Source of the DNA: Bacilli bacterium
GTDB taxonomy: Bacteria; Bacillota_I; Bacilli_A; RF39; UBA660
NCBI GenBank assembly: GCA_017450205.1
Contig: JAFSVF010000007.1
Span: forward strand, 44,060 to 108,059
Direction: 5' to 3'
Length of the DNA: 64,000 nucleotides
Shown: one piece after another, positions 36,422 through 52,947 of the stretch
How the letters are laid out: each line of letters begins with the position of its first letter
How positions within the stretch are numbered: position 1 is the stretch's first letter
The notes under the pieces: generated by a model
Seen by the model: the letters and a program-made list of their open reading frames with translations, nothing else
Told to the model about the DNA's origin: nothing
The model's database searches: none
Made by a program: the position numbers and the translations under genes

Positions 36422-36671
36422 TTCTTCTTTTTTTTGTAAAGTGTGAAACTTTTTATCAAAAAACATTCAAAAAGTATCACACTAATAAATTATTGAAAAA
36501 TATAAGAAATGTACGTATTTTAGTTGAAAAACGTACATTTTTTTGTTAAACTACTATTGGTTTTGTATAAACAAAACTAATAGACACATTTACCCAGAAG
36601 TCTCTGCCCAGTGGCCATAAGGTTGGTGGAGCTTAGGTAAGTGGATGAAAAAACAAAAGGAGAGTGAAATT

Positions 36672-37601
36672 ATGGCAGTTGTTTCTATGAGTTATTTATT
36701 AGAAGCAGGTGTTCAATTCGGACACCAAACTAAAAGATGGAACCCTAAAATGAAGGAATACATCTTTACTACTAGAGACGATATTTATATTATCGACCTA
36801 GAAAAAACTGTTGCATGCATCGAAACTGCATATGCAAAAGTTAAAGAAATCGCTGAAAACGGTGGAAACTTCCTATATGTAGGAACTAAAAAACAAGCTG
36901 TTGAAGCATCAGTAGAAGAAGCTCAAAGAGGAGAATCTTTCTATGTAACATCTAGATGGTTAGGTGGAACTCTAACTAACTTCAGAACTATTAGAAGAAG
37001 AGTTAGAAGATTAGATGAAATCGAAGCTATGGAAAAAGATGGTACTTTTGAAAAATTACCTAAAAAAGAAGTTATCGGTTTAAGAAAAGAATATGAAAAA
37101 TTAAACAAAGTATTATGTGGTATCAGAGGAATGGATAAATTACCTAACGCTTTAATCATTACTGATCCTTCTAAGGAAATTAATGCTATTAGAGAAGCTA
37201 GAAAATTAAATATTCCAGTATTTGGTATCGTTGATACTAATTGTGATCCTGATTTAGTTGATTATGTTATTCCTGGTAATGACGATGCAGTTAGATCTGT
37301 AAAAGTTATTTTAGGAGTATTAACTAATGCTATTTGTGAAGCTAAAGGACTTCCATTAGTTGATTATATTACTGAAGTAGAAAAACCAAAAACTCAAAAA
37401 GAAGTTTTAGATACTGAAAAAACTAAAGAAGTTAAAAAAGAATCTAAAAAAGAAGAAAAAGTTGAAGTAGTTGAAGAAGTTGCTTCTGAAAACGACTTAG
37501 CTTCTAAAAATGTTACTGAATTAAGAAACATGGCTAAAGAAGCTGGCATCAAAGGTTATTCTACAATGAAAAAAGATGAACTAATCGCATCTTTAAGTTA
37601 A
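36672..37601 (+). CDS. rpsB: 30S ribosomal protein S2 with C-terminal Rho_N-like extension
   Basis: [27 protein letters not shown]... matches the S2 core. A K/E-rich linker is followed by [26 protein letters not shown] (Rho N-terminal / SAP-like motif). RBS aaaggag. Confidence 0.93.
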
Positions 37602-37624
37602 TTAATTAAGATAGGAGAATATAT

Positions 37625-38503
37625 ATGATATCTGCAAAAGATGTAAATGAATTAAGACAAAAAACTGGTGCAGGAATGATGGACTGCAAAAAAGCATTAA
37701 CTGAATGTAATGGTGACATTGAAGCTGCTATTGATTGGTTAAGAGAAAAAGGTATTTCTAAAGCTGCAAAGAAAACTGAAAGAATTGCTGCTGAAGGATT
37801 AGCTAATATTTATGTTGATGGTAACAAAGCTGCTATCGTTGAAGTAAACTGCGAAACTGACTTCGTTACAAGAAATGCTGATTTCGTTGCATTAGTTGAT
37901 GAAATTGGTAAAACAGCTGTTAAAAGTGATGCTAAATCATTAGAAGAAGTACTTGCTTTACCTGTTGAAGGAACTGAAGGAACTGTAAACGATTTAGTTA
38001 TTGCTAAAACTGCAGTTATCGGAGAAAAATTATCTTTAAGAAGAGTTGAAGTTGTTACTAAGACTGATGAAGATAACTTTGGTTCATACATCCATATGGG
38101 TGGAAAAATTGCTTCATTAGTAGTTGTTAAAGGCGCTAATGAAGATGTAGCTAAAGACGTAGCTATGCAAGCTGCAGCTATGAAACCAGCTTACTTAAAA
38201 GCTGATGACGTTCCTGCTGAAGTATTAGAAAAAGAAAAAGAAATCTTAAAAGAACAAGCTATTAATGAAGGAAAACCTGCTGATATAGCTGAAAAGATGG
38301 TTCAAGGAAGAATTTCTAAATACTATAAAGAAAATTGCTTAGTTGACCAAGAATTCGTTAAAGATTCTTCTATGGATATCAAAACTTTCGTTAAAAATGC
38401 TGGTGGTGAAGTTACTGCTATGTACAGATACGAAGTAGGCGAAGGAATGGAAAAGAGAAGCGAAAATTTAGCTGAAGAAGTTGCTAAACAATTAGCTGAA
38501 TAA
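37625..38503 (+). CDS. tsf: elongation factor Ts
   Basis: N-terminal UBA-like LRQKTGAGMMDCKKAL and EF-Ts dimerisation domains. Conserved rpsB-tsf order. Confidence 0.95.
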   Translation: MISAKDVNELRQKTGAGMMDCKKALTECNGDIEAAIDWLREKGISKAAKKTERIAAEGLANIYVDGNKAAIVEVNCETDFVTRNADFVALVDEIGKTAVKSDAKSLEEVLALPVEGTEGTVNDLVIAKTAVIGEKLSLRRVEVVTKTDEDNFGSYIHMGGKIASLVVVKGANEDVAKDVAMQAAAMKPAYLKADDVPAEVLEKEKEILKEQAINEGKPADIAEKMVQGRISKYYKENCLVDQEFVKDSSMDIKTFVKNAGGEVTAMYRYEVGEGMEKRSENLAEEVAKQLAE

Positions 38504-38510: not shown

Positions 38511-38543
38511 AAAGAGTTTATTTCATATAAACTCTTTTTTTTA
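38511..38543 (+). terminator. rho-independent terminator after tsf
   Basis: agagtttat / ataaactct stem followed by T8. Confidence 0.55.
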
Positions 38544-38694
38544 CTTATTTTTAATTTTGGTCCAAAAAATCGCATTTTTTATTCATTTTATTGACAAATA
38601 TAAGAAAAATATCATTTTTTGGTCCAATAATTAATAAAAAACTTGATTTTCATCATTTTTTGTTTATTATTAAAATTAGGAAGTGGTAAAGTGT

Positions 38695-40014
38695 ATGAAG
38701 AAGAATTTTAATAATGAATTATATTTTCAAAAACAAAAAGAAGGTCTTATTAAAAGCTTTGAAGGTGATTTTCAAAGATTTTACGTAGAAATTGGTGGTA
38801 AAACACTTGGTGATTTTCATTCAAATAGAGTTTTAAATGGATATGATCCTGATATTAAATATAAAATTATAAAAGATATAGAAATTGGTTTTGAAATTAT
38901 TGTTTGTATTAGTGCGATATCTATTATCAAAAGAAAAAAGAAAAAAGATACTAAAAAATTATATACTGATGAAGTATTAGAATTATTAGATAGATTAAAA
39001 AAAGATAAAATTAAATTTAATGTTGCTATAACTAGATATAGAGAAAATTTCCATGTAGATGGATTTATTGATAAATTAAAAGATATGAATTGTGGTGTTT
39101 ATCGTTTTTTTGAAGATACAAATTATCCTTATGATGTAGAGAGTGTTGTTTCAAAAAATGGACTTGGATCTAATGATTATATTCCTTGTACTGAAAGAGT
39201 AGTTTATGTTATTGCTCCTGGTACAAATTCTGGTAAATTTGCAGTTTGTATTTCTCAAATTTATCATGAAAAGAAACAAAAAATATGTTCGACTTATAGA
39301 AAATTTGAAACTTTCTTAATTCCTGATTATCCAATTAATCATCCTGTTAACTTAGCTTGTTCAATGGCGATGTGTGATGTTAGAGGGGATGATACAATTG
39401 ATTCAGATTATTTAAAAAAGAGAGGAATGCTTATTTGTATTGATTCTCGAGATGCTGAATCCTTTAAAATATTAAATAGAATAATTCCAAAAGAAGAAAA
39501 AAGAACAACTGTTTATGAATATTTCATTAATAATACTAGTGCCGGAATTATTGATGAAGAACTTGCTATTAAACATGCGAAAAAAGAAATTGTTAGAAGA
39601 TATAAAGAATATATAAAAGCATATAATGGTAATAAAGTAAGTCAAATTGAATTTGATGAAGCTTCTAGAATTTATAATTTGATTGATAAAAATATTATTC
39701 TTAGTAGAAATGAAATGCATGTTTTATTGAAAAACTTTATTGACCTATGGGGATTTGATTGTCAAAGTAATGTTTGTATGGAAGAGATGGGTGAGTTAAT
39801 TCAAGCCATTTGTAAATATAAAAGAGAAGACAATGATGAGAGATATATTCCAAATATTTTAGAAGAAATTGCTGATGTTCATAATATGATTATTCAACTT
39901 GAGGAGTATTTTGGTTATGAAGAAATAAGAAAAATCAGAGAAAGAAAAATATTTAGAGCTCAAAAGTATTTAATGGATGAAATAGAGGAAGGTTTAATAG
40001 GTGATAAGAAATGA
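38695..40014 (+). CDS. DUF1846/UPF0371-family protein (tentative, from recalled family pattern)
   Basis: FYVEIGGKTLGDFHSNRVLNGYDPD, VYVIAPGTNSGKF...YRKFETFLIPDYPINHPVNLA and AKKEIVRRYKEY resemble my recollection of UPF0371 (not checkable here). First gene of the overlapping operon. Confidence 0.5.
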   Translation: MKKNFNNELYFQKQKEGLIKSFEGDFQRFYVEIGGKTLGDFHSNRVLNGYDPDIKYKIIKDIEIGFEIIVCISAISIIKRKKKKDTKKLYTDEVLELLDRLKKDKIKFNVAITRYRENFHVDGFIDKLKDMNCGVYRFFEDTNYPYDVESVVSKNGLGSNDYIPCTERVVYVIAPGTNSGKFAVCISQIYHEKKQKICSTYRKFETFLIPDYPINHPVNLACSMAMCDVRGDDTIDSDYLKKRGMLICIDSRDAESFKILNRIIPKEEKRTTVYEYFINNTSAGIIDEELAIKHAKKEIVRRYKEYIKAYNGNKVSQIEFDEASRIYNLIDKNIILSRNEMHVLLKNFIDLWGFDCQSNVCMEEMGELIQAICKYKREDNDERYIPNILEEIADVHNMIIQLEEYFGYEEIRKIRERKIFRAQKYLMDEIEEGLIGDKK

Positions 40015-40457
40015 ATATATTTTTAGCATCTCCTTTTTCTCAATTTTGTGAAGGAGATTCAGATATAATTGTAGAAAATAGATGGTTTTTTGAAAGATTA
40101 ATTAAGTTTTTTAAAAAAAATAAATTTGATTATTTTTGTTCTCAAGAAAGAGAAAATTGGGGAGAAAATTATGTGAGTCCCGAAGAAAGTATTATATGTG
40201 ATGTTAATGGAATTAAGGATTGTGATTTATTTGTTGCAATTCCTGGTAATCCTATTTCAGGTGGAGTACATGTAGAGATTGGATGGGCAAGCGCATATAA
40301 TAAAAAAATGTTAGTATTTTTAGATAAGAATATTGAATATAGTCCTATGATTTTAGGATTAAAAGAATTAACTGATTGTACTTTTATTTATTATGATGAT
40401 TTATTAACTGATGAAACTGTTGATTTAATTATAAAATCAATTAAGGAGGTAATTTAA
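40011..40457 (+). CDS. nucleoside 2-deoxyribosyltransferase-fold protein (NDT/MilB-BlsM-like)
   Basis: IFLASPFS N-terminus and GGVHVEIGWASAYNKKMLVFL with a candidate catalytic Glu. Confidence 0.6.
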   Translation: MNIFLASPFSQFCEGDSDIIVENRWFFERLIKFFKKNKFDYFCSQERENWGENYVSPEESIICDVNGIKDCDLFVAIPGNPISGGVHVEIGWASAYNKKMLVFLDKNIEYSPMILGLKELTDCTFIYYDDLLTDETVDLIIKSIKEVI

Positions 40458-40458: not shown

Positions 40459-41463
40459 ATGTATCAAAAATTATTTCCTGAAATGTTAAAATTTGATAAT
40501 AAATTTCCTTTATATTATTGGATTTCACTTTCTAATAAATGTAATGCTAATTGTAAATTTTGTGATATTCACGAGAAAGAAGATATTAATACTAAAGTAG
40601 ATGTTTTTAAATTATTGGATAATATTAAAAATATTGGTGGAAAATATGTTCAATTTACCGGAGGTGGAGAACCTTTCGCAAATCCTGAAATCTTTGATTA
40701 TTTAGAATATGCTACCAAATTAGGTTTAAATATTGTTTTTATAACTAATGGATTTTTTCTTACAGAATCAATTGTAAAAAGATTTAAAAATTACAATATT
40801 AGAGCTATTTTTGTTTCAATAGATAGTCATTTAGCAAAAGTGCATAATGAGACTAGAAGTGTTAATAAACTATTTGAAAGAGCTACTGCTGGTATAAATA
40901 ATATAAAGCATTTATATCCAAATATAAAAATAATAATTAATCATGTTTTAAATGATTCAAATATTGATGATTTAGATAAATTTATTGCGTTAAAGGATGA
41001 AATTAAATACGATTATTTAAATCCTATTATTGTAAAGGAATGTCCTGAGTTTTATTTTACAGATGATCAGATAGATGATTATAAAAATAAAACTAACTTA
41101 TTATTAGAATTGGCTAAAAATCATAATGTTGAATTTTTATATGATGATATAAATTATTTTGTTGATTCTAAATATTTAAACGATGGTTCTGATTTAAGAA
41201 AAAATGATGTTCCTTGTAATGCTTTAAATTACGCTTCTTTTATAGATTGTGTAAGTGGAAATGTTTATCCATGTGATTGCAGTGTACATAGAGATTATGA
41301 CTATTATTGTTTTGGAAATGTTTTAGCTGATAATTTAGAAAAAATATATAGTAATGATAAATGTAAACAATTAAGAAAGGAATTAAAATGTGCGAGTAAG
41401 TGTAAGTCAAAATGTGATTATGCTAATGTTCATTTTAATTTACTAGTTAATGAAAAAAAATAG
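40459..41463 (+). CDS. radical SAM enzyme with C-terminal SPASM-like Cys-rich domain
   Basis: CNANCKFC (CxxxCxxC) motif. C-terminal cysteines CNALNYASFIDC...CDC...C...CKQLRKELKCASKCKSKC. Confidence 0.85.
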   Translation: MYQKLFPEMLKFDNKFPLYYWISLSNKCNANCKFCDIHEKEDINTKVDVFKLLDNIKNIGGKYVQFTGGGEPFANPEIFDYLEYATKLGLNIVFITNGFFLTESIVKRFKNYNIRAIFVSIDSHLAKVHNETRSVNKLFERATAGINNIKHLYPNIKIIINHVLNDSNIDDLDKFIALKDEIKYDYLNPIIVKECPEFYFTDDQIDDYKNKTNLLLELAKNHNVEFLYDDINYFVDSKYLNDGSDLRKNDVPCNALNYASFIDCVSGNVYPCDCSVHRDYDYYCFGNVLADNLEKIYSNDKCKQLRKELKCASKCKSKCDYANVHFNLLVNEKK

Positions 41464-42541
41464 TATTATTCTTTTAGCGGAAGATTTTGGGTTTGGTCCA
41501 GTTACCACATTAATTGAAATAGCTAAAGAGATTAAAAGAAGAGATAAAGATATTGAATTGATATTTATTGGTCCTAAGTTTTGTATTAATAAAATAAAAA
41601 GTGAAGGATTATGTGATAAATATGTTGATATTCGTTATATGCCAGAAGAAATTGAAAAAAACATAGATCTTTTTAAAAATGCTAATAAGATCTTAGCTGT
41701 TGAGACAACTGATATTCTTATTTATTTAATTAATAATTATGATTTAAAGAATATTTATTTAGTAGATAATTTATTTTGGATGTGGGATTTTTTAGAAGAA
41801 GAATTAAAAAAATTAAAAAGATATTATATTTCCGATGTTATATCGTGTGATGAAAACATCGAAAGAATTGGACAAGGATTTAATAATTTATATAAAGTTG
41901 GAATGTTAAGACATAACTATAATAAAGATATTAAAACTGATAATAATTTGATGATTTCATTAGGCGGAGCAAAATCTTATATGTTTAATAGTGATTTAAT
42001 ATATAAGTTCTATTTAAATGTTATTAATCATATTTTAAGTAATGCTAAAGCTAAGGAATTTAAAACTATTTATATTACTGGTGGTTCTGAACTAATAGAT
42101 TATTTAAAAGATAATTTAATTGTTTTAGATAATGTTATTTTAAACACTTATAATCATGATGAATATTTAGATAAATTACATTCTTGTCGTTATGCGATTA
42201 TGTCACCTGGGCTAGGTAATTTTAATGAAATTATTCTATCTAATATTAATACAATGTTTTTATTACCAATAAATTATAGTCAATATATTCAAAGACTAAA
42301 ATTTAAAAAGTATTATGATTATTTTGATTATCAAATTAATAATAAAGAGAGTGCAATTGAAGAATATTTAGAAGAATCAATTGGAGTTAATAAAGTAATT
42401 GATAATCTTAAAAAATATGATTTTAGTAGTTTTGATGCAGAAATAGAATCATTCTTTAACAAAAATGATGTAAATAAAAAAATAGACAAGGATAAATTTG
42501 ATACGAATGGAATTTGTGAAATAGTTGATGATTTATTATAG
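41450..42541 (+). CDS. hypothetical Rossmann-like protein, possibly GT-B glycosyltransferase-like
   Basis: 363 aa. Weak resemblance to GT28/MurG-like C-terminal features (GGSE...SPGLGNFNE). Confidence 0.3.
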   Translation: MKKNSIILLAEDFGFGPVTTLIEIAKEIKRRDKDIELIFIGPKFCINKIKSEGLCDKYVDIRYMPEEIEKNIDLFKNANKILAVETTDILIYLINNYDLKNIYLVDNLFWMWDFLEEELKKLKRYYISDVISCDENIERIGQGFNNLYKVGMLRHNYNKDIKTDNNLMISLGGAKSYMFNSDLIYKFYLNVINHILSNAKAKEFKTIYITGGSELIDYLKDNLIVLDNVILNTYNHDEYLDKLHSCRYAIMSPGLGNFNEIILSNINTMFLLPINYSQYIQRLKFKKYYDYFDYQINNKESAIEEYLEESIGVNKVIDNLKKYDFSSFDAEIESFFNKNDVNKKIDKDKFDTNGICEIVDDLL

Positions 42542-42549: not shown

Positions 42550-43716
42550 ATGAAAAAGATTTGTTTTGATCCTTTTTATGGTTTAAATTATATTGGTTTT
42601 AGAGAAAAGCTTAGAGTAAATAAGATTCTTAAGAATAAAAGCTTATTTAGATATGATGGTGTAAACATGCTTTATGAGTCTGATAAAGTAGAAGAAAGCC
42701 TTAAGAACATGTTTAATGAAGATGCATTACTTGTAAATAATGGAACAAGTGCACTAAAACTTTGCTTACTAGCCAATGGAATTGGTGAAGGTGATGAAGT
42801 AATAGTTCCTTGCTTATCATTTATTGCTACAGCTGCTTCTTGTTTATCTGTTGGAGCTATTCCTGTTTTTGCAGACATTGATGAGTCATTTTCTATTGAT
42901 CCTAATTCAATAGTTGAAAGAATTACAAAAAAAACTAAAGCTGTAGTGGTTGTTCACTATCAAGGATATTCATGTGATATGGATAAAATACTAGAAATAT
43001 GCAGAAAATATAATTTAGCTTTAATTGAAGATTGTGCTCAAGCTTTTGGTAGTAAGTATAATAATAAATTAATTGGTACATTTGGAAATAGTTCTGCTTT
43101 TAGTTTTCAAGCTTGCAAAGTTATAACTTGTGGAGAAGGTGGAGCTGTTATTTCTAAAGTTAATATGGATTATATTAATAGATATGCTGATAATGGTGGT
43201 TATAGAGAAAAAGACATGATGCCACTATGGAATAAAAGTTTTACAAGTTTTGGTGAAAATTTCAAAATAACAGATTATCAAAGTGCGTTATTAAGCATTC
43301 AATTAACGAGATTAGATAAAATAATTAATCATCAAAAATTAATATTTAATGCATTAACTGAAGGATTAAATAAATATAATCTTAGAAAGATTAATAAAAG
43401 TTCTGATATTATTCCTATGTCATTATGTGTTACTTTTAAAACTAAAATAGAATGCGATAAGTTTATTGATTATATGAATGACAATGGTATTGAATTTTCG
43501 AAAAGAATAACTAATTTTTTACCCAAATATAATACATTTGAAAAAGGTTTATCCCCTTATAAAAATAATTTTCCTTATAAGAATTATAAGGTTCAAATTT
43601 GTTTAAAAAGTTTAAATCTTTTGAATAGAAGTGCTTGGTTAGTTTTGAATTCAAAATTAAGTAAAAAAGAGATAAATTATATTAAAAATAAAATGGTAAG
43701 TTATTATGAAAAGTAA
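42550..43716 (+). CDS. DegT/DnrJ/EryC1/StrS-family PLP-dependent sugar aminotransferase
   Basis: GDEVIVPCLSFIATA...PVFADID segment and the SFQACKVITCGEGG catalytic Lys motif. Confidence 0.9.
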   Translation: MKKICFDPFYGLNYIGFREKLRVNKILKNKSLFRYDGVNMLYESDKVEESLKNMFNEDALLVNNGTSALKLCLLANGIGEGDEVIVPCLSFIATAASCLSVGAIPVFADIDESFSIDPNSIVERITKKTKAVVVVHYQGYSCDMDKILEICRKYNLALIEDCAQAFGSKYNNKLIGTFGNSSAFSFQACKVITCGEGGAVISKVNMDYINRYADNGGYREKDMMPLWNKSFTSFGENFKITDYQSALLSIQLTRLDKIINHQKLIFNALTEGLNKYNLRKINKSSDIIPMSLCVTFKTKIECDKFIDYMNDNGIEFSKRITNFLPKYNTFEKGLSPYKNNFPYKNYKVQICLKSLNLLNRSAWLVLNSKLSKKEINYIKNKMVSYYEK

Positions 43717-44518
43717 TTTTACAAATGATAAATTGTATAGAGATTCACTATATTTTAGATTTACAACTAATAAGATTAAGTCATCTAAGAATTTAGATAT
43801 AGTTAAATATTTTGGTAAGAATATTTGTTTTCAATATTTTGATAGTGCAATAGATGATGAAGATATATCTTTTTTAAAAAATATAAATAAATCTTCAAAT
43901 ATTCAATTTAGATACATTAATATGGATTCTAATTTATATAAGGTATTAAACATTAATTTTATTATTGATATTACAGATAAATGGAAAGCACCTATCCTAG
44001 AATTAAAGAAAAATGAAGTTGATAATTATGTTAATTCAAAATCATATAATTTTAGAAGAATGATTAAGAAGAATGATAATTATTTAAAAGAATTAAAATT
44101 TAAAAAAGGAAATACCTTTGATTTATGGAAGAATATTTTATATATAGATCAAAATAGTTGGAAGAGTGAAGAAGAAAGTGATATGTTTAATCTTTCTTAT
44201 GAACATATTACTTTGTTATCACAAATTAAGAATTCTGATATTGAAGTTGCTTATAAAAATGGCGTTCCAGTTGGTTATTCATTATTAATTTATTATAGCG
44301 GTATATATTATGCTGCTAAATGGGGAGCAACTGAAGAAGGAAGAAAATTAAATGCTGGAATAATTTGTTTATTTAATCAAATAAAAAGGTTATCTAAGAA
44401 GAAAGACTTATATATAGATTTATGGGGAAGGAATAATAAGATTTATGATAGAATTGCTACAAGTTTTATTGATAGATGTTATTTAAGGATTAGTAAAAAT
44501 GGAAGTAAAAAGAATTAA
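43706..44518 (+). CDS. hypothetical protein, possibly FemAB/BioF2-like GNAT-fold transferase
   Basis: 270 aa. Weak similarity to Acetyltransf_6-type domains. Coupled within the operon. Confidence 0.35.
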   Translation: MKSNFTNDKLYRDSLYFRFTTNKIKSSKNLDIVKYFGKNICFQYFDSAIDDEDISFLKNINKSSNIQFRYINMDSNLYKVLNINFIIDITDKWKAPILELKKNEVDNYVNSKSYNFRRMIKKNDNYLKELKFKKGNTFDLWKNILYIDQNSWKSEEESDMFNLSYEHITLLSQIKNSDIEVAYKNGVPVGYSLLIYYSGIYYAAKWGATEEGRKLNAGIICLFNQIKRLSKKKDLYIDLWGRNNKIYDRIATSFIDRCYLRISKNGSKKN

Positions 44519-45461
44519 ACTCAAAAGTTTAAAAAATATCAATGAATTAGTTGATAATTCTTATAATGGAACATCTTTTTCATATGATTTCTTTTTGAAA
44601 CTTAAAAATGTTGAATATGTTTTATGTGTTTATGATGAAGATAAATTAGTATCTTTTATGCCATTATTTGAAGATAATGGTGATTTGAATCAATCTACCA
44701 TGTATATTCCTTATGGTGGTCCTGTAATTCTATATAATTTTCCTTCTTATAGAAAAAATATTATATATACCAGAAATATTTTAAATGTTATATGTTTGTA
44801 TTTAAAGAATAATTATAAGAATGTATGTTTATCATTAGATCCATTATTAACTGATATTATTTCTTTTGTAAAAAATGGTTTTATTCCTGAAGTTAGATAT
44901 ACTTATAAGATTGATCTAAACGATAATCTTGATATGATTTATTCTAATTTTGGTAGAGATAGAAAGAAACAAATTAAGCTTTGTAAGAATTATAAAGTGA
45001 TTTTTGATGATAAGTGTTCACTTTTTGATTTAGAAAAGGCTCTTATTTGGGAATATAACTATAGTAATGATATAAGTGTAGATTTTACCAAAAAGTATTT
45101 AAGTGAAGCTATCAAAAATAATAATGGTAAAATATTTTTAGCTTCTGATGGAGAAAAAATATTAGGTGGCGTTGCGATAGTTTGGGATAATAAAAATGCA
45201 TATATTATGTATTCATATTATGATAAAACAACAACTACAGTTATTCCTTTCTTATATTATGAGATTATTAAATATTTAAAAGATCATAATATATGTGAAA
45301 ATTTAGATTTTGAAGGATCAGTATTTAAAGAAATAGAAGAATGGAATCTTTCATTTGGATCTAAGCAAGTTTTATATTTTAATTTTTATTATGGAGAAAA
45401 TAGAGAAGAATTATTTAATGACTTGTACGATTATGGTGAAAAAAATGACAAATATGTATAA
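44499..45461 (+). CDS. FemAB/BioF2-like (GNAT-fold, possibly aminoacyl-tRNA-dependent) transferase
   Basis: C-terminal segment ...IVWDNKNAYIMYSYYD...IPFLYYEIIKYLKDHNICENLDFEGS resembles FemX/BioF2-like cores. Confidence 0.45.
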   Translation: MEVKRIKLKSLKNINELVDNSYNGTSFSYDFFLKLKNVEYVLCVYDEDKLVSFMPLFEDNGDLNQSTMYIPYGGPVILYNFPSYRKNIIYTRNILNVICLYLKNNYKNVCLSLDPLLTDIISFVKNGFIPEVRYTYKIDLNDNLDMIYSNFGRDRKKQIKLCKNYKVIFDDKCSLFDLEKALIWEYNYSNDISVDFTKKYLSEAIKNNNGKIFLASDGEKILGGVAIVWDNKNAYIMYSYYDKTTTTVIPFLYYEIIKYLKDHNICENLDFEGSVFKEIEEWNLSFGSKQVLYFNFYYGENREELFNDLYDYGEKNDKYV

Positions 45462-46320
45462 ATATTATTCTAACAGTGGTACTGAATCTTTTGATGTTAT
45501 TTTTAAATCCGATTTTTTCAAAAATGGTGATGAAGTAATTGTACCTGTTTCATTATGTGAATGTGTAATTAATTCTATTATAAAGAATTCATTAGTTCCT
45601 GTTTTTGTAGATATTGATAAAAATTTTTTGATAAAAAAAGAAGACATTAAAAAGAAAATTACCAATAAAACAAGGGCAATCATTTTTGTTGAACAATATG
45701 GTTTTGATATTAATAATGTTTGTACTTATAAGAATAAGAAAAATGAAAAAATTATAAATATATTGGATTCTTGTCAAAATATCATTAAAAATAATAATTC
45801 TGATTATGATTTTATTGTTTATTCCTTTAATAAGAATAAACCTATAAGTATTGGTAAATATTCATTATTTTATTCAAGTAAAAAAATAAATTTTGAGTAT
45901 AAAATTAGTCTTAAATTAAGGTTTATTATTAATTTTAAAAGATTATTATTTTTATTTAAATATTTAAAAAGAAGACATATTTATAATTTTATAAAAAAGA
46001 ATTTGCTTATACATGGGTATTTTATTAGTCATAGTAACTCTTCATTACATAGAATAGTATTTATTATGAAAATCACAAAAAAAGGTTTTATTAAATTAGA
46101 TGATAAATTATATGAATTTTTAGATAAGAATAATTTTAATTGTGTTCAAACTACAATTGAAGTTTCACCATTTGAAAGATTAAAAATTAAAGACGAGTTT
46201 AAACAATTTAATGATTATAGATATAAAGCATTGTATTTTAGACCATCATTCAAAAAAAGTGAATATTTAAAAGTTATTAAATACTTGAATGATATATGGG
46301 GTGATTTAAATGAAAATTGA
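45445..46320 (+). CDS. divergent N-terminally truncated DegT-like protein
   Basis: GDEVIVPVSLCECVINSI...PVFVDID...TRAIIFVEQYG and YSFNKNKPISIG mirror DegT motifs, but the protein is about 80 aa shorter. The ATG at 45445 overlaps the upstream stop. Confidence 0.4.
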   Translation: MTNMYKYYSNSGTESFDVIFKSDFFKNGDEVIVPVSLCECVINSIIKNSLVPVFVDIDKNFLIKKEDIKKKITNKTRAIIFVEQYGFDINNVCTYKNKKNEKIINILDSCQNIIKNNNSDYDFIVYSFNKNKPISIGKYSLFYSSKKINFEYKISLKLRFIINFKRLLFLFKYLKRRHIYNFIKKNLLIHGYFISHSNSSLHRIVFIMKITKKGFIKLDDKLYEFLDKNNFNCVQTTIEVSPFERLKIKDEFKQFNDYRYKALYFRPSFKKSEYLKVIKYLNDIWGDLNEN

Positions 46321-47773
46321 TTATGTACATAAAGAATTAATTTCTAGAAAACCATATTTATTAGAAGATAATTTTTGTCCAAATGTAGGTTTATTTGAAT
46401 ATGGAAAATCAGAAAACGTTGATAAAGTTTTATATGGAGCAAATGTTTATAGATATGATATTTATAACTATAGAGATGATGAAGATAGGATTAAGAACCT
46501 TGGTGGTGGTGATCCTATTCAATTTAAGACGTATAAATACATAAATAAAGATATTAATTCTTATTTAAAGAAAAATAAATTAAATGATTATCCTCATACT
46601 TCAGGTGATGAAGAAGTAAAAAATAAACTAATTGATTATCTTAAAAGTATTGGTATAAGTGATGTTAATGAAGAAGAACTTCTTATAACTGCTTCTACTA
46701 CTCATGGTTATTCTTTAATTTTAAAATCTATTATTAGGCCGCATGATGTTGTAATAATACCAACACCAACTTATGGTTTATTTGTTTATGAACCTGAAAA
46801 ACTTGGCGGAAGAGTAGAGTTTATTGAACTTCATGAAGATAAGAATTGGAAATTAGATTTAAAAGAGTTTGAAGATTTAATAATTAAAATTAATAAAGAT
46901 TTAAAGAATAAATATAAAGATTTAGGATATACTCCAAGAGTAGTTTCTATTTATCATCAAAATCCTAATAATCCTTTAGGAATTACTTATTCCAAAAAGG
47001 ATAAAAAGTATTTAAAAGATTTTTTAAAAATTTGTGAAAAATATAAATTATTGGTTATTGATGATTTAGTTTATAGAGATTCAGTATACGATTTAGATGA
47101 TATATCTATACCACTTGCTTCTTTTAAAGAATATAAAGATTGTGTTATTTCTTTATTTGGTATTTCAAAATCATTTTCCCTTGCGGCATTAAGAACTGGT
47201 TTTATACACGGAAATAAATATATTATTCAAGATATCAGAGATAGTTTATTTATTCAAATGGATTCTATTTCAATGTTAAGTCAAATAGCTTTATCTAGCG
47301 TATTTAATAATGATACAAAGAGAGTTGAATATAGAGAAAAATTTTTAAGTAAAATTAAGCAAAAATATTTAGATAACCTAGATATTATTAAATTTTTTGT
47401 CAATGGTGAGACTGATATTTCATCTAGAAATAAAAGAAGAATCAAGAGATTATTAAAAGGTAATTATAATAAGTATAAAGATGGAAATAAAGATGTAAGT
47501 ATTTATCATAATCTTATTCCTAAATCTGGATTCTTTATATTATTAGATTTTTCTAAATTTAAAGGGAAAAAGATTAATAGGAAACTTATTAAAAATGATA
47601 TAGATTTCTTAATCGAGATTTATAAGTGTTCTAAAATTAAATTTCTTCCTGGTAATTCATTTGCATGGAATAATACGGATGATATTATTGGAAGAATTAC
47701 ATTTTCTAAGCCTTTTGAAACATTGTTATTTGATTTTAAATCTTTAATGGATGTTTTAAATGGTTTTAAATAG
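46310..47773 (+). CDS. class I/II PLP-dependent aminotransferase-like protein
   Basis: NPNNPLG segment and the SKSFSLAALRTG motif containing the PLP-binding Lys. Confidence 0.7.
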   Translation: MKIDYVHKELISRKPYLLEDNFCPNVGLFEYGKSENVDKVLYGANVYRYDIYNYRDDEDRIKNLGGGDPIQFKTYKYINKDINSYLKKNKLNDYPHTSGDEEVKNKLIDYLKSIGISDVNEEELLITASTTHGYSLILKSIIRPHDVVIIPTPTYGLFVYEPEKLGGRVEFIELHEDKNWKLDLKEFEDLIIKINKDLKNKYKDLGYTPRVVSIYHQNPNNPLGITYSKKDKKYLKDFLKICEKYKLLVIDDLVYRDSVYDLDDISIPLASFKEYKDCVISLFGISKSFSLAALRTGFIHGNKYIIQDIRDSLFIQMDSISMLSQIALSSVFNNDTKRVEYREKFLSKIKQKYLDNLDIIKFFVNGETDISSRNKRRIKRLLKGNYNKYKDGNKDVSIYHNLIPKSGFFILLDFSKFKGKKINRKLIKNDIDFLIEIYKCSKIKFLPGNSFAWNNTDDIIGRITFSKPFETLLFDFKSLMDVLNGFK

Positions 47774-47782: not shown

Positions 47783-48643
47783 ATGAATAAGTATATTGAT
47801 TTACATTGTCATTCAACTTTTAGTGATGGTGATTATAGTGTTGATGAATTAGTTCAAATGGCTAAGAATAATAATGTTGGATTTTTTAGTATAACTGATC
47901 ATGATAAAGTAGATGCTTGTTCTCATAAAGTAAATGATGAGGATATAACTATGGTTAATGGAATAGAATTATCTACTTATTATAAATATAATAATGAAAT
48001 TTGTTATATTCATTTATTGGGTTATGATTTTAATCCATATAATAAGAAATTACTTAATGAACTTAAAAGAATGAGAGAGATATTAATTGATGATAGTACT
48101 AGATTTGTTAATTGTTTATTGAGTAAAAAAATACCATTAGCTCCTAATGTTATTGAACAAATAGATGTTTCTAGTTATAGACTTATTCAGGATCAATTAA
48201 AAATTGTTATGTTAAATAATGGTTATGATGAGAAATATTATAAATTTATTAGTTCTATTATTAAAGATGATTATCCATTATATGAAGATTATGAAATTGA
48301 ATTAGGTAAAGCAATTGATATTATATTAGAAGCTGATGGTATTCCTGTTTTAGCACATCCTAATAGAATTCATATAAGCGAAGAGAAAAAAGATTCTTTA
48401 ATTAAAGAGTTAAAAAATAAAGGTCTTATGGGAATTGAAAGCAATTATTCTTATTATAGTGATTATGAATTTGATTTATATTCTAAAATAGCAAAAAAAT
48501 ATTCTTTACTTGAATCAGTTGGTTCTGATTTCCACTTTTATACTAAAGAAAATAATGTTAATATAGGAAGTGGGATAAATTCTAATCTTCTAAAAGAAGA
48601 TTGCTCACTTAAGAGAGTATTGATAGAGAGGCCATTAAGATGA
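47783..48643 (+). CDS. PHP-family metal-dependent phosphoesterase
   Basis: IDLHCHSTFSDGDYSVDELV...ITDHD motif, typical of PHP/histidinol-phosphatase-like enzymes. Confidence 0.8.
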   Translation: MNKYIDLHCHSTFSDGDYSVDELVQMAKNNNVGFFSITDHDKVDACSHKVNDEDITMVNGIELSTYYKYNNEICYIHLLGYDFNPYNKKLLNELKRMREILIDDSTRFVNCLLSKKIPLAPNVIEQIDVSSYRLIQDQLKIVMLNNGYDEKYYKFISSIIKDDYPLYEDYEIELGKAIDIILEADGIPVLAHPNRIHISEEKKDSLIKELKNKGLMGIESNYSYYSDYEFDLYSKIAKKYSLLESVGSDFHFYTKENNVNIGSGINSNLLKEDCSLKRVLIERPLR

Positions 48644-49404
48644 AAAGCAAGATAGATGAAATAATGAAGAACGCAACAATTAATGATATAAGTATTGGTT
48701 GTTCAGGAGATAGTGTTAAAGAAATAGTTAAAAACGATAAAACTTATTATTTGAAAAAGGCTAAAGGGAATAAACTTGATAAAGAATATTATATGTTTAA
48801 TTATTTAAGTGAATTACATTTAGCTCCAAAAATAGTTGAGTTTAAATTTGATGGTGAATATAGTTATTTATTTACTGAAAAACTATCTGGTGATATGATT
48901 TGTTGTGATGAAATTTTTGATGATATGAATCATGTTATTGAATTAGCAGCAAAGGCAATCAACATTTTACAATCAATTGATGTTGATACTTGTCCTTTTT
49001 ATAATAATTTAAATATTAAATTAAGAACTGCTAAATATAATATTGAACATGGATTGGTAAAGACTGAAGATATGTCTGAAGAGAGCCAAAAAAGATTTGG
49101 AAGTGTAGAAAGGGCATATGAGTATTTAGTTAATAATAAAATTGTAGAAGAAAAATTAGTGTTTTCTCATGGAGATTTAAGTATTCCAAATATATTTTAT
49201 GAAAATGAAGAAATTACAGGATTTGTTGATTTAGGAGATTCTGGAATTGCTGATATGTGGTTTGATATAGCAATTTTAGTTAAATCTTTAAGAAAAAATT
49301 ATGAAACTGATGAAGCAGAGAAGTATTTATTTAAACTATTAGGAATTGAACCAAAATATGATATTATAGATTATTATATTATTTTAACAGATGTATTTTT
49401 ATAA
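48640..49404 (+). CDS. aminoglycoside 3'-phosphotransferase-family kinase (APH(3')-like)
   Basis: VFSHGDLSIPNIFYENEEITGFVDLGDSGIADMWFDIA aligns along its length with APH(3')-III-type catalytic and Mg-binding motifs. Gly-rich loop GCSGDSV...YYLKK. Confidence 0.85.
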   Translation: MKSKIDEIMKNATINDISIGCSGDSVKEIVKNDKTYYLKKAKGNKLDKEYYMFNYLSELHLAPKIVEFKFDGEYSYLFTEKLSGDMICCDEIFDDMNHVIELAAKAINILQSIDVDTCPFYNNLNIKLRTAKYNIEHGLVKTEDMSEESQKRFGSVERAYEYLVNNKIVEEKLVFSHGDLSIPNIFYENEEITGFVDLGDSGIADMWFDIAILVKSLRKNYETDEAEKYLFKLLGIEPKYDIIDYYIILTDVFL

Positions 49405-49422
49405 AAAACAGGGGGTGATATT

Positions 49423-51066
49423 ATGCAAATATTAAATGTAAATGAGTTAGGAATGAATTTTGGGTTCGGAACATTATTTAGTAATTTATCTTTTACTTTA
49501 AATGAAGGAGAATCTATTTCAATTGTTGGTCCAAATGGATGTGGAAAATCCACATTATTAAAGATTATTGCTGGTTTAGAAAAACAAGATTGTGGTCAAG
49601 TAAGTATTAAAAAAGGTGCTAAAGTAGCTTATTTAGATCAAACTGGTGCTTCAAAGGATGATTCAAGAAAAGTATATGATGTTTTAAAAGAATCTTTTGG
49701 TAGTTTATATGAATTAGAAAAAGATATTAAAGAGTTAGAAAAAACTATGGAAGCACAACCAGACAATTCTAAAATAATTGAAAAGTATTGTGTTATGATT
49801 GATAAGTTTTCTCAATTAGGTGGATATGAGATGGATTCTACTATTAATACAGTATTATCTGGATTAAGAATTGATTCTAAAGTTCTAGAACAATCATTTA
49901 ATAATTTAAGTGGTGGAGAAAAAACTTTAATTCAATTATGTAAATGTTTAATTACTAAACCGGATTTATTGTTATTAGATGAACCAACAAACCATTTAGA
50001 TATAGAAAGAATAGAATGGTTAGAAAAATATATTAAGAATTTTAAAGGTGCTTGTGTAATTGTTTCACATGATAGATATTTCTTAGATAAAATGTGTAAT
50101 AAGATTTTAGATTTAGAAGATAAAGAACCTGAAATTTTTAATACTAATTATACTGGTTATTTAGAAGAAAAAGAAAATAGATTTGAAAAACAATTAGCTG
50201 AATATAAAGATCAACAATTAGTTATTAAAAGATTAGAAACTGAAATGAAAATGTTTGCGGAACGTGGTATGCAAACTAACAGTTCTACCTTGACAGCAAG
50301 AGCTCATGCGCTTCAAACTAGAATTAATAAAATTAAAGAAAATGCTGTTGCTAGACCAGTTAAAAGAAAAAAATCAAATATTGAATTTAATGAAGAAGCT
50401 AAATCTAGTAAAAAGATAATTCAAGTTAATGATTTAACTGTTATGTTACCAAATGCTGATCTTTTATTAGATGATATTAGTTTTGATATTAAAGCTGGTG
50501 AAAGAATTGCTTTAATTGGTTCAAATGGATGTGGAAAATCAACAATTGTTAAATCAATTATGGGTACTAATGACTTAGAGTATGATGGTGAAATAATAAT
50601 TGGACCTAGTGTTAAAATCGGATACATTCCTCAAATTATTCAATTTAGTGATGAGAAGAAGTCATTACTAGAATACTTTAGAAATGCTACTGGTTTACCT
50701 GAACAAAGGATTAGACAAATACTTGTTGGTTTCCAATTCTATAATGATTCAATTATGAAGAGAGTAGGAAATCTTTCTGGTGGTGAAAGAATGAAATTAA
50801 AATTAGCTGAGTTGTTACAAAATAAAGTTAATACATTAATTTTAGATGAACCAACAAACCATATAGATATTGATACTAAAGAGGTATTTGAAAGCGCTTT
50901 AGATGATTACAATGGAACAATGATTTTTGTATCACATGATAGATATTTTATTAATAAATTTGCGGATAAGATTTATGAAATTGATAATGGTAAATTAGAT
51001 ATTTATTATGGCGATTATGATTATTATGCTGAAAAGAAAGCTCAACAATTAGTAAGAAAAAGATAA
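49423..51066 (+). CDS. ABC-F family ATPase (tandem ABC domains with inter-domain linker; ARE/ribosome-protection-like)
   Basis: Two Walker A motifs (GPNGCGKST, GSNGCGKST), two LSGGE signatures and no TM domain. Confidence 0.9.
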   Translation: MQILNVNELGMNFGFGTLFSNLSFTLNEGESISIVGPNGCGKSTLLKIIAGLEKQDCGQVSIKKGAKVAYLDQTGASKDDSRKVYDVLKESFGSLYELEKDIKELEKTMEAQPDNSKIIEKYCVMIDKFSQLGGYEMDSTINTVLSGLRIDSKVLEQSFNNLSGGEKTLIQLCKCLITKPDLLLLDEPTNHLDIERIEWLEKYIKNFKGACVIVSHDRYFLDKMCNKILDLEDKEPEIFNTNYTGYLEEKENRFEKQLAEYKDQQLVIKRLETEMKMFAERGMQTNSSTLTARAHALQTRINKIKENAVARPVKRKKSNIEFNEEAKSSKKIIQVNDLTVMLPNADLLLDDISFDIKAGERIALIGSNGCGKSTIVKSIMGTNDLEYDGEIIIGPSVKIGYIPQIIQFSDEKKSLLEYFRNATGLPEQRIRQILVGFQFYNDSIMKRVGNLSGGERMKLKLAELLQNKVNTLILDEPTNHIDIDTKEVFESALDDYNGTMIFVSHDRYFINKFADKIYEIDNGKLDIYYGDYDYYAEKKAQQLVRKR

Positions 51067-51070
51067 TTTA

Positions 51071-51097
51071 AAGATATCATTTGATATCTTTTTTTTG
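51071..51097 (+). terminator. rho-independent terminator ending the operon
   Basis: aagatatca / tgatatctt stem followed by T6. Confidence 0.5.
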
Positions 51098-51300
51098 ACA
51101 CTTTTTATATTTATTATTTTATATGTGTAAGTAATATAAGAGTTAGTAATTATGAATTGTTTTTTTATAAAAAATAATGAAGAAGAGTGAATTATATGAA
51201 TGATATGAATTAATAAAAGATCAATAAAGAAATATATGTTAAATATTTATTTTTCAATAAATATATGATATAAATGATGTAGAGGAAGCATTATCAATTA

Positions 51301-51486
51301 ATGTTATCTCGGTTTGGGTTAACGCCTAGTCAATGACTAGGTGTTTTTTATTAACCAAAACCCCTGAAAGAAAAGACTCCTTCTATATGATCAATAAAAG
51401 AATAATTATAAGTAAAATAAAGATAATCTTATCTCTTCTGCTCATAACTAAACACCTCACATTCACTTAGAATGCCGAGATAACAT
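51301..51486. repeat. nested inverted-repeat structured element
   Basis: Outer IR aatgttatctcgg (51301-13) / ccgagataacat (51475-86). Inner IR ggtttgggttaa / ttaaccaaaacc encloses the hairpin cctagtcaatgactagg followed by T6. Confidence 0.4.
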
Positions 51487-51780
51487 CAAGATAAATAATC
51501 CTCTAATATTATATATACACGGTCGAAGTCCATTTTTCTCATTTTTATATTTAAAACTTTAAAAATATTTGTAAATTTCAAAAAAATGCTATTTCCAAAA
51601 CTAAATTAAATTAATAGTAAATAAATTTAATATCTTTTTTTATGATTTTATTATAAAATTAGTTTAGGAGGCTAACTATTAAAAGTCAATAATTTTTAAT
51701 AGTAGTTATAAATTGGAAGAGAATCCCACGCCAAAAAGATTTCACTTTCGTGAAATTTTTGAAAAAAATAATTATTTTAG

Positions 51781-52947
51781 TTATTTCAATAAAGACGGAT
51801 CAAAAAGGATATTTTGAGTTTCGAGTTTGTAAATAACTCTAAGTAGTTTTTTACAAACATGAGATAATGCAACACGATGATTTTTACCTTCTGAACGTTT
51901 CTTTAAGTAAAAATCATAAAAAGTCGGGTTATATTTAATAACAATATTTGCAATATTCATTAAAGAATATCTTAAATATCCAGAACCACGCTTAACCATT
52001 TTACCATTACATGAAATAGTACCTGATTGGTATATTCCAGGTTCTAAACCTGCAAATGATAATAATTTATCTGCATTTGAAAATTTATTAAAATCTCCAT
52101 ATTCAGATATGATTACAGCTGTGGTAAGTTCACCAATTCCTGGAATAGAAAGTGTTGGTGGATTTAGTTCTTTGACAATTGTAGAAATTTGTTTATCAAT
52201 TGAATTTATTTTTGAATCAATTTCGTTGTAAAGGCAAATAAGAGTTTGAAGTTCAATTTCAAATACTTCGTTTGATTCACCAATCGTATTTTTTGCAAGT
52301 TCTTTAAGTTTTGCAAATTTAGCATAAGTTAAGTGACATTTAGATAGTTTATTTGGTGTTTCAAAATCACGCATATTAGCCATTTTTTCAGCAGTACCAT
52401 ATTTATTAAGAAAATATAACGATGTAACTGAAAACTTATTATTAAAAAATGGTTTAAACTCAGGAAAAATAATATCTAATATATTAGTTAATTGAACCAT
52501 ATATTTAGATCTTTGTTTTACTAAAGATTCTCTTAGTCTTGAAAGTGACTTGATTGAATATTTATGATAAAATAGTTTTGAATTTGGGGTGTATGGAACT
52601 GACATAAGTTTTTGACAAATTATAATAGCATCAACTTTATCAGTTTTAGTTCTTCTTAAAGTTAATGATTTTTTAAATTCTTTAACTAATAAAGGATTAA
52701 ATTCCATAAAATTATAATTATTCTTTTCTAAGAATAATTTCAAATTCAAACCGTAATGTCCAGTGGCTTCGAGACCGATATGGACATTTTCATTATCATA
52801 GGATTTCAACAAGTCTAGAAATCGTTGGAATCCTTTTTTATTATTTTCAAATGATAAATTTTCTACAATGATTTCACCTGTATCTTTACAGATGAAACAA
52901 TCGTGTTTGTATTTTGATATATCTATTCCAACATATATCATATACAT
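51781..52947 (-). CDS. IS110-family transposase (DEDD RuvC-like N-terminus + C-terminal Tnp domain)
   Basis: N-terminal YVGIDISKYKHDCFI and conserved family architecture. 388 aa. Confidence 0.85.
   Translation of the reverse strand: MYMIYVGIDISKYKHDCFICKDTGEIIVENLSFENNKKGFQRFLDLLKSYDNENVHIGLEATGHYGLNLKLFLEKNNYNFMEFNPLLVKEFKKSLTLRRTKTDKVDAIIICQKLMSVPYTPNSKLFYHKYSIKSLSRLRESLVKQRSKYMVQLTNILDIIFPEFKPFFNNKFSVTSLYFLNKYGTAEKMANMRDFETPNKLSKCHLTYAKFAKLKELAKNTIGESNEVFEIELQTLICLYNEIDSKINSIDKQISTIVKELNPPTLSIPGIGELTTAVIISEYGDFNKFSNADKLLSFAGLEPGIYQSGTISCNGKMVKRGSGYLRYSLMNIANIVIKYNPTFYDFYLKKRSEGKNHRVALSHVCKKLLRVIYKLETQNILFDPSLLK

Follow-up and report, generated by a model that had tools for sequence, protein, structure and literature searches.

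An ABC-F ATPase closing a blasticidin-type nucleoside operon in uncultured gut Bacilli is a candidate producer self-resistance factor

The ABC-F gene and the operon it closes

This study concerns a gene for an ABC-F ATPase, and the biosynthetic operon that ends with it, in a 64,000-nt stretch of DNA from an uncultured Bacilli bacterium of the GTDB lineage RF39, UBA660 (the window; positions 44,060 to 108,059 of the forward strand of contig JAFSVF010000007.1, assembly GCA_017450205.1; coordinates below are those of the window). The gene (49423..51066, + strand) has an ATG start and encodes 547 aa. Pfam searches identified two ABC_tran domains (E 1.6e-53), corresponding to nucleotide-binding domain 1 (NBD1, residues 1-240) and NBD2 (residues 331-530), together with the ABC-F inter-domain module ABC_tran_Xtn (PF12848, E 7e-11) at residues 230-322; a C-terminal helix occupies residues 532-546. 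Both NBDs lie in one polypeptide and all of their ATPase motifs are intact: Walker A at residues 36-43 and 366-373, the LSGGE signature at 162 and 451, Walker B at 182-187 and 471-476 with the catalytic glutamates E187 and E476, and the H-loop histidines H216 and H505. No transmembrane segment was found, the maximum 19-residue Kyte-Doolittle hydropathy over the whole protein being 1.09. In the AlphaFold2 model (predicted local distance difference test, pLDDT, 81.6) an arm subdomain emerges from NBD1 as a hairpin at residues 94-131 (49702..49815, +), with helices 94-111 and 116-131; the distance from Walker A to the H-loop of NBD1 is 174 residues, versus 111 in Msr(E). The inter-domain linker (PtIM/ARD; residues 243-330, 88 aa; 50149..50412, +) is modelled as a helix (243-285), a tip, a second helix (288-306) and a disordered basic tail. 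Alignments place the linker-tip motif KMFAERGMQTNSSTLTARAHALQTR, with the core GM-x-x-NS-x-x-L, at residues 276-300 (50248..50322, +) and show that the tip is 8-10 residues longer than that of EttA, the extra residues being located exactly at the tip of the hairpin. The gene product is a genuine ABC-F ATPase, as a preliminary description made from the sequence had proposed from two ABC domains, an inter-domain linker and the lack of transmembrane segments.

Twelve tightly packed genes run in the same direction here, and the ABC-F gene comes last. The preceding gene, which encodes an APH(3')-like phosphotransferase, ends at 49404, and the 18-nt gap between them holds only a strong Shine-Dalgarno sequence, AGGGGGTG (49410..49417, +; read from the sequence), leaving no room for a leader peptide or an attenuator. 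Upstream, the cluster is bounded by the terminator of the rpsB-tsf operon (38511..38543, +; hairpin AAAGAGTTTAT..ATAAACTCTTT followed by T8), and promoter-like hexamers are located at 38643-38676, ahead of the first cluster gene. Downstream, an AT-rich hairpin (AAAGATATCA/TGATATCTTT) with a T-run begins 4 nt past the ABC-F stop codon (51070..51098, +) and is the likely operon terminator on our reading of the sequence; the terminator scanner did not flag it because it has too few G-C pairs. A second, stronger site resembling an intrinsic terminator follows at 51321..51351 (+), with an 11-bp stem containing 5 G-C pairs and then a T-run. These boundaries confirm the earlier description of the gene as the last of its operon and a neighbour of an APH gene. 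Neither upstream of the ABC-F gene nor upstream of the operon was a leader, riboswitch or attenuator detected, and Rfam gave no match near the cluster. The drug-inducible leader-peptide or attenuator control that is common among Firmicute resistance ABC-Fs was thus not found at the window gene, and its expression is, on the sequence, coupled to the operon rather than attenuator-controlled.

The eleven genes upstream of the ABC-F gene, all on the + strand, are largely recognisable as parts of a nucleoside pathway. The operon opens with a DUF1846-family gene (38683..40014; PF08903, E 1.8e-73), whose true start is likely the in-frame ATG at 38695. It is followed by a CMP N-glycosidase gene of the BlsM/MilB/BcmB type, whose characterised relatives release cytosine from CMP (40011..40457); phmmer searches of PDB sequences matched BcmB (4JEN, 9e-26), BlsM (5VTO, 6e-23) and MilB (4JEM, 6e-22), with generic nucleoside deoxyribosyltransferases at ~1e-3. 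The third gene (40459..41463) encodes a radical SAM/SPASM enzyme; among solved structures it is most closely related to BlsE, the cytosylglucuronate decarboxylase (7VOB, 4.8e-14; the next matches, a radical SAM core domain protein and then viperin, are at ~3e-5); on the model TIGR04466 it scores 71.5 bits, below the cutoff of 400. The fourth gene (41450..42541) encodes a lineage-restricted GT-B glycosyltransferase, a candidate cytosyl-hexose synthase. It belongs to no Pfam family, has only 24 homologous sequence clusters in the database, all from this lineage, and has as its sole NCBIfam match the cytosylglucuronate (CGA) synthase model TIGR04467 (E 5e-7, 29 bits, below the cutoff of 300). A profile of this protein matched no PDB sequence; its GT-B fold was found by fold search only, the AlphaFold2 model (pLDDT 89.5) matching GT1/GT-B UDP-glycosyltransferases in Foldseek with E-values of 5e-10 to 1e-7. 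A DegT/DnrJ/EryC1 sugar aminotransferase gene (42550..43716; PF01041, E 6.7e-74) would provide a BlsH-type step.

The second half of the operon begins with two paralogous genes (43706..45461; g06 at 43706-44518 and g07 at 44499-45461) whose products match Acetyltransf_6 just below the gathering score (E 2e-4 and 5e-4) and may be Fem/GNAT-like acyl or aminoacyl transferases. Next is a truncated DegT-like pyridoxal-phosphate (PLP) enzyme gene (45355..46320; PF01041, E 1.9e-14). Its listed TTG start overlaps g07 by 107 nt, and gene callers start it ~60 nt later on identical contigs (L063), giving 300 aa; this later start is more plausible than the TTG at 45355. Then come a class I/II PLP enzyme (46310..47773; PF00155, 8e-30) matching the NCBIfam GntC model, associated with arginine-derived chemistry, below cutoff (1.6e-31), a PHP-family phosphatase resembling 3',5'-nucleoside bisphosphate phosphatases (47783..48643; Pfam PHP; NF041577, 1.8e-35, below cutoff) and the APH(3')-like O-phosphotransferase (48640..49404), which matches APH(3')-IIIa in the PDB (4e-36) and scores 193.9 bits on the NCBIfam APH(3') model (cutoff 205).

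The predicted enzymes, among them a CMP N-glycosidase, a radical SAM enzyme resembling BlsE, a glycosyltransferase with the GT-B fold and aminotransferases of the DegT family, assign the operon to the cytosyl-hexose nucleosides: together they make up the core of a pathway of the type that yields blasticidin S, mildiomycin, gougerotin and arginomycin. The enzymes fall below equivalog cutoffs and are accompanied by extra genes, which marks the window cluster as distinct from the clusters for these four antibiotics. Its product would be a cytosyl-aminohexose nucleoside, probably a peptidyl one. Blasticidin S, gougerotin, mildiomycin and arginomycin are inhibitors that bind to the peptidyl-transferase centre (PTC); by analogy, the product of the cluster would target the same site. 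The preliminary description had compared the ABC-F with Vga, Lsa, Msr and OptrA, implying pleuromutilin, lincosamide and streptogramin A (PLS-A), macrolide or oxazolidinone drugs; the cluster itself points instead to a drug of the blasticidin/gougerotin type.

The surroundings of the cluster have features of their own. Downstream, ~700 nt of AT-rich non-coding DNA (51100-51780) and an IS110-family transposase gene (51781..52947, - strand; DEDD_Tnp_IS110 2e-34, Transposase_20 1.6e-22) separate it from genes for a 535-aa protein without assigned function, a Fic protein and a T2SSE ATPase, and this arrangement on the IS110 side recurs in other contigs of the same organism. Upstream lies rpsB-tsf (36645-38503), and in one related lineage (L151) the cluster likewise follows directly on a translation-factor operon, fusA-tuf (L151:1-2747); this neighbourhood could reflect chance or the use of highly expressed surroundings. 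The ribosomal protein S2 encoded in the window (36645-37601) carries a C-terminal Rho_N-like domain (PF07498, E 1.8e-11, residues 284-316), an unusual rpsB fusion. A single tRNA gene (15477-15550, -) is the sole Rfam match in the window.

Linkage of ABC-F genes to the cluster across lineages

The genomic surroundings of the ABC-F gene were recovered for 14 lineages, the relatives being 56-76% identical to the window protein and derived from metagenome-assembled genomes labelled 'Bacilli bacterium' and from metagenome assemblies, of which at least some carry a human gut label. Starting from the ABC-F, two cluster architectures were observed. The type-1 cluster has the gene order of the window, ending in PLP enzyme, PHP, APH and ABC-F, and was found with an ABC-F in the window and in the lineages P0015/L072 (72% identity to the window ABC-F), P0010 (73%), P0043 (71%) and L076 (only 56%). 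The P0015 protein appears in 822 blocks of the assembly collection, at least one of its contigs is labelled human gut metagenome, and its cluster is flanked by pgk-tpi. The type-2 cluster runs from a glycosidase fusion through PHP, radical SAM, DegT, g07-like, DegT, a synthase-PLP fusion, ATP-grasp and methyltransferase genes to the ABC-F, without an APH gene, and accompanies the ABC-F in P0003/L071 (76%), P0008/L007 (74%) and P0002 (76%). On the chromosome these clusters are flanked variously by rpsB-tsf with IS110, by pgk-tpi, by HTH and AMP-binding genes, by a kinase-like gene, or by GNAT and Ham1 genes.

A reverse test was started from the most divergent homologues of the window glycosyltransferase, which occur in lineages L151 and L153. 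In L151 the type-1 genes are present with APH and PHP inverted, the flank is fusA-tuf, and the last gene of the cluster is again an ABC-F. In L153 the order is permuted to PLP enzyme, DegT-like, ABC-F, DUF1846, glycosidase, radical SAM, glycosyltransferase, DegT, g06, g07, a small open reading frame, PHP and APH. The ABC-F (5377-7047; GCA_964562125.1, CAZLSM010000014.1) lies here within the cluster, shares only 42% identity with the window protein, does not belong to its clade and has the linker tip EYGRLAFPGGVGFF, unlike that of the window clade. It looks as though the pathway recruited an ABC-F here independently.

An ABC-F was present in all seven type-1 and all three type-2 clusters; these 10 independent versions, all those found, differ in architecture (two kinds), gene order (three) and flanking context (at least five). 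It is also the best-conserved gene of the cluster, at 73-76% identity compared with 41-69% for the enzymes of type 1 and 25-39% for those of type 2. Because every cluster carries an ABC-F, one of them non-orthologous and internal, incidental adjacency is unlikely, and chance proximity to a housekeeping gene could not reasonably give such linkage. We regard this as the strongest evidence on the role of the protein; it greatly reinforces the suggestion, made in the preliminary description from gene position, of a ribosome-protection role rather than one of the EttA/Uup/YdiF type.

Other cluster genes recur as well. The DUF1846 homologue also opens the type-1 cluster in L004-6 and L151 and is kept in L153; g06 and g07 are kept in every type-1 cluster, and g07 is found in type 2 too. 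In the type-2 contig L067 a 421-aa protein (L067:2-1000) carries a CMP-glycosidase domain, and an 823-aa protein (L067:5870-8341) fuses a CGA-synthase-like half to a GntC-like PLP enzyme, the N-terminal half matching TIGR04467 at 1.2e-40 (140 bits, cutoff 300). In the type-2 architecture, glycosylation and amino-acid chemistry are tied together by these fusions.

Proposed self-protection and its alternatives

To place the window protein among ABC-F subfamilies, as the preliminary description had recommended, neighbour-joining trees were built from 526-530 well-aligned columns, and support was taken as bipartition counts over 200 bootstraps. The window clade was monophyletic (100% bootstrap) and comprised three deep groups, A (100%), B (90%) and L076, each with a cluster-linked member. 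Its nearest outgroups, at 41-43% identity, were a 540-aa Listeria ABC-F and ~630-aa proteins of Tissierellia and Halanaerobiales, and the clade forms a long isolated branch with at most 43% identity to anything outside it. A 100% split separated the clade, these outgroups and the L153 protein from EttA, Uup, YbiT, YheS, OptrA and PoxtA; Msr and Lsa were farther still. The placement thus gave no grouping with the housekeeping factors EttA, Uup, YbiT and YheS and no supported grouping with OptrA or PoxtA, leaving a distinct, unnamed clade. The linker tip KWFAERGMATNSSTLTARAHALQTR, with its core GM-x-x-NS-x-x-L, is almost invariant in alignments of all three groups. Between two syntenic genomes that lack the cluster, the ABC-Fs are 70% identical and an alanyl-tRNA synthetase (AlaRS) fragment 89%; the clade ABC-F therefore evolves faster than a core translation gene.

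The protein's own features leave the choice between resistance and housekeeping undecided, and it is comparative genomics that decides. GenBank names the protein (MBQ7240105.1) 'ABC-F type ribosomal protection protein', a name that appears to derive from NF000355, 'ribosomal protection-like ABC-F', the sole NCBIfam model that it passed (475 bits, cutoff 380). Neither the match nor the name is informative, because E. coli housekeeping factors pass the model too: YheS scored 432, YbiT 431 and Uup 418, and EttA, at 377, was 3 bits short. We rejected the match as evidence of resistance, and PGAP names that rest on NF000355 may overstate the case for it elsewhere. No named family was reached on NCBIfam models (score/cutoff), whether resistance families (Vga 360/725, Msr 320/680, Lsa 257/750, Sal 326/725, CplR 318/780, OptrA 317/1450 and the TlrC/CarA/OleB/SrmB producer family 310/800) or housekeeping ones (EttA 376/599, with 377/807 on the TIGR model, Uup 358/900, YbiT 351/762, YheS 287/917). 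Searches of PDB sequences gave similar bit scores for EttA (272), VmlR2 (271), YbiT (255), YheS (253), PoxtA (251) and Uup (250). In Foldseek searches with the AlphaFold2 model the top structural matches were all ribosome-binding ABC-Fs, with EttA best, PoxtA second (9e-42), and EttA, PoxtA and VmlR2 within three orders of magnitude. With EttA, PoxtA, VmlR2, YbiT and Uup about equal, sequence and fold searches were discarded as a discriminator.

Linker length was no more decisive. Resistance ABC-Fs of ARE1-5 have linkers with on average ~30 extra residues, extension is not the rule among resistance ABC-Fs as a whole, and arm loss is most drastic in ARE1 and ARE2 (Murina et al. 2019; PMC6723617). 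Measured from the NBD1 H-loop histidine to the NBD2 Walker A lysine, the linker region is 156 residues in the window protein, 145-148 in the four E. coli proteins, 156 in PoxtA, 147 in OptrA and 177-181 in Lsa(E) and Msr(A)/(E). The window linker thus exceeds that of EttA by only ~11 aa and falls far short of those of Lsa and Msr, and the ~30-aa extension over EttA that characterises ARE1-5, and is not required for ARE7 or ARE8, was not seen. Among relatives without an assigned function, the value is 156 in the 540-aa Listeria protein, 154-155 in those of Paratissierella and Halanaerobiales and 149-150 in other ~640-aa proteins. The preliminary description had expected linker length and composition to separate the classes. 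For length this did not hold, as the window value lies between the E. coli factors and Lsa/Msr and equals both PoxtA and the Listeria relative, and we dropped length as a class discriminator.

These ambiguous protein-level results weigh against a resistance role, and so do several genomic observations. Six lineages of the clade (P0062, P0047, L008/L009, L074, L075 and L079) have no adjacent cluster, and the two that belong to group A account for 77 of 120 database matches, counted as 90%-identity sequence clusters. Linkage is therefore frequent and not obligatory, since relatives of 56-72% identity also occur without a cluster beside them. P0062 and P0047 share an island of GNAT, NUDIX, HAD, Ham1 and S51 genes, and this shared synteny indicates vertical inheritance there. 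Within group A the cluster-linked copies do not form a monophyletic set (type-1 copies do so in 10% and type-2 copies in 0.5% of bootstraps), and cluster-less copies are nested among them. This nesting fits an ancestral linkage in which the cluster was later lost and the ABC-F kept; it also fits the vertical descent of a resident gene with the cluster evolving beside it. No exporter or transporter gene was found in the cluster with Pfam, so that the route of product release is not accounted for. Finally, no bacterial link between blasticidin and an ABC-F was found in the literature, and no ABC-F is known to act against blasticidin-type drugs.

Two of the remaining cluster-less copies have distinctive neighbours. 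The L075 copy, 60% identical to the window protein and 78% to the cluster-linked L151 copy, adjoins a gene for a VirD4/TraG conjugative coupling protein (L075:373-4758), which suggests that it is carried on a mobile element; the L079 copy is located among MurD-like, GNAT, O-methyltransferase and APH genes. ABC-F genes of this kind are accordingly encoded both in the 10 clusters, with IS110 near the window copy, and, in L075, next to a conjugation gene. Islands of small GNAT, NUDIX, HAD, His_Phos, Ham1, S51 and PNP genes (L059:7631-17946, L061:4865-9961, L068:2170-6442) host the cluster-less P0062 and P0047 copies and also the type-2-linked P0002 copy. In the L059/L060 island there is a Cdd-like deaminase with an extra N-terminal domain, and in L059 a PLP enzyme like the class I/II one of the window operon and two ATP-grasp genes lie 6.4 kb downstream. 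The deaminase-family gene upstream of the P0062-type copy was considered as a blasticidin S deaminase; this was unsupported, as it matched ordinary Cdd at 2e-12 and blasticidin S deaminase at 5e-8 to 3e-4.

On balance, we consider it fairly probable that the window ABC-F is a ribosome-protection factor by which the producer resists the cluster's own nucleoside. The most direct alternative is that the protein is a lineage-resident housekeeping translation factor, YdiF/YfmM-like and resolving stalled ribosomes, with the cluster merely adjacent. The cluster-less relatives, two of them in conserved synteny, and their nesting among cluster-linked copies are what this would predict; the linker length and the arm also resemble those of EttA, PoxtA and the chromosomal Listeria relative, and the 64-kb window encodes no other ABC-F, so a separate housekeeping complement is not demonstrated. 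Adjacency in every cluster, across different architectures, orders and flanks, argues the other way, and the non-orthologous ABC-F inside the L153 cluster is unexplained by chance adjacency. Together with the long isolated branch, the divergence faster than AlaRS and the L075 copy beside a conjugation gene, this makes a housekeeping role unlikely in our judgement.

Cluster linkage would be explained equally well if the protein were a regulatory or sensing factor of the LmrC type, which binds product-stalled ribosomes and tunes the biosynthetic genes while conferring little direct resistance; in lincomycin biosynthesis, an ABC-F encoded by the cluster is described as a signal transducer (PMC8546547). 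We think this quite unlikely here, as Pfam revealed no transcription-regulator gene in the type-1 cluster, neither the ABC-F gene nor the operon has a detectable leader or attenuator upstream, the ABC-F is the last gene of the very operon it would control, and the cluster-less copies would lack anything to regulate. A role as the ATPase subunit of a product exporter, the historical annotation of Ard1- and Hyg28-type proteins, is suggested by the cluster having no other transporter and by one source that names a relative 'ABC transporter, ATP-binding protein'. It is very improbable, given that the protein has no transmembrane segment, that none of the 10 clusters has a permease gene, that the fused two-domain architecture with an ABC_tran_Xtn linker defines an ABC-F, and that all top structural matches bind ribosomes. 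Ard1 and its kin are now regarded as mis-annotated transporters (PMC10201436).

If the window ABC-F is a self-resistance factor, a mechanism can be proposed by analogy with solved ABC-F-ribosome complexes. Homology to the proteins in these complexes suggests that the ATP-bound form would enter the ribosomal E site, where the arm would contact the L1 stalk and the medium-length linker hairpin, with its GM-x-x-NS-x-x-L tip, would reach the acceptor end of the P-site tRNA and the PTC. There the linker would displace the cluster's own product or reshape its binding site, and ATP hydrolysis via E187 and E476 would free the protein from the ribosome. Because the protein is structurally closer to PoxtA and OptrA, with their short linkers, than to Vga, Lsa or Msr, indirect action through the acceptor end of the P-site tRNA seems likelier than direct collision with the drug. 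Protection would come on with production, since the ABC-F gene shares the pathway's transcript and lacks an attenuator. The APH(3')-like kinase and the PHP phosphatase probably form a second layer that keeps intermediates phosphorylated, and the cluster-less copies of the clade may be immunity genes retained or acquired by non-producing relatives.

A broader proposal, to which we give somewhat less than even credence as a whole, is that abundant uncultured Bacilli of human and animal guts make a blasticidin- or gougerotin-like PTC inhibitor and protect their ribosomes with a hitherto unnamed ABC-F subfamily bearing the GM-x-x-NS-x-x-L tip, that no earlier ABC-F would have served as a resistance factor for hexopyranosyl-cytosine nucleosides, and that the cluster-less copies, including the one beside a conjugation gene, are circulating immunity genes forming a gut reservoir of a new target-protection resistance. 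If true, it would link a very common gut lineage to the production of a ribosome-targeting nucleoside antibiotic, provide a new medium-linker resistance clade useful for understanding how the short-linker PoxtA and OptrA act at the P site and PTC, and flag a target-protection gene that is already outside its producer cluster.

Comparison with known systems

The Streptomyces clusters for blasticidin S, mildiomycin, gougerotin and arginomycin share with the window cluster a CMP N-glycosidase and a sugar aminotransferase, and for their cytosylglucuronate synthase and BlsE-type radical SAM enzyme the window cluster has candidate counterparts. The window cluster differs in its host, a low-GC (~25%) uncultured gut member of the Bacilli, and in that all of its enzymes score below equivalog cutoffs. 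It contains additional DUF1846, PHP, APH(3')-like and two Fem/GNAT-like proteins, and an arginine 2,3-aminomutase was not detected in it, unlike in Streptomyces-type clusters. Self-protection in the Streptomyces blasticidin-type clusters is by an acetyltransferase, a deaminase or efflux and is not known to involve an ABC-F.

Cluster-encoded ABC-F self-resistance is itself already known, from OleB, CarA, SrmB, TlrC, VarM, LmrC and Ard1, all of them from Actinobacteria. What is new is the host and, as far as the sequences tell, the unnamed clade with its own tip motif and the predicted drug class. We know of no cluster-embedded ABC-F self-resistance gene in Firmicutes, our literature searches having been aimed at other questions. 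The closest functional precedent is Ard1 (AAF1) from the A201A cluster of Streptomyces capreolus, which confers narrow self-resistance to a nucleoside; A201A and hygromycin A are also among the drugs countered by VmlR (PMC10201436). Like the window ABC-F, Ard1 is encoded inside the cluster for a nucleoside, and its drug targets the PTC; compared by description rather than by sequence, it is actinobacterial and of a different subfamily, and its drug is an aminoacyl-aminonucleoside, not a cytosyl-hexose. The A201A cluster reportedly pairs Ard1 with a phosphotransferase, Ard2, and the pairing of kinase and ABC-F in Hyg21/Hyg28 is said to be similar. Hyg21 and Hyg28 are named as self-resistance candidates in a review. 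The pairs msr(E)-mph(E) and msr(A)-mph(C) likewise combine an ABC-F with a phosphotransferase, as do the APH and ABC-F genes of the window.

Vga, Msr, Lsa, Sal and CplR (ARE1, ARE3, ARE6) and VmlR (ARE2) are Firmicute ABC-Fs that protect the PTC. They are typically under leader-peptide attenuation, which the window gene lacks; the linkers of Lsa(E) and Msr(A)/(E) are 21-25 aa longer than the window linker, and Msr(E), judged by its NBD1 length, has no arm, whereas the window protein has kept its arm. EttA, Uup, YbiT and YheS have the fold, the arm and a similar length in common with the window ABC-F, EttA being its best PDB sequence and fold match; they are separated from it by the 100% split and by the family cutoffs, and the window tip is 8-10 aa longer and has another motif. 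PoxtA (ARE8) and OptrA (ARE7) are borne on mobile elements and act on phenicols and oxazolidinones, are only 28-34% identical to the window ABC-F and have no supported grouping with it in the trees, and the OptrA model is far from being reached. They nevertheless share with the window protein the arm and a short to medium linker (156 and 147 residues, respectively, versus 156), and they show that a long linker is unnecessary for a resistance ABC-F.

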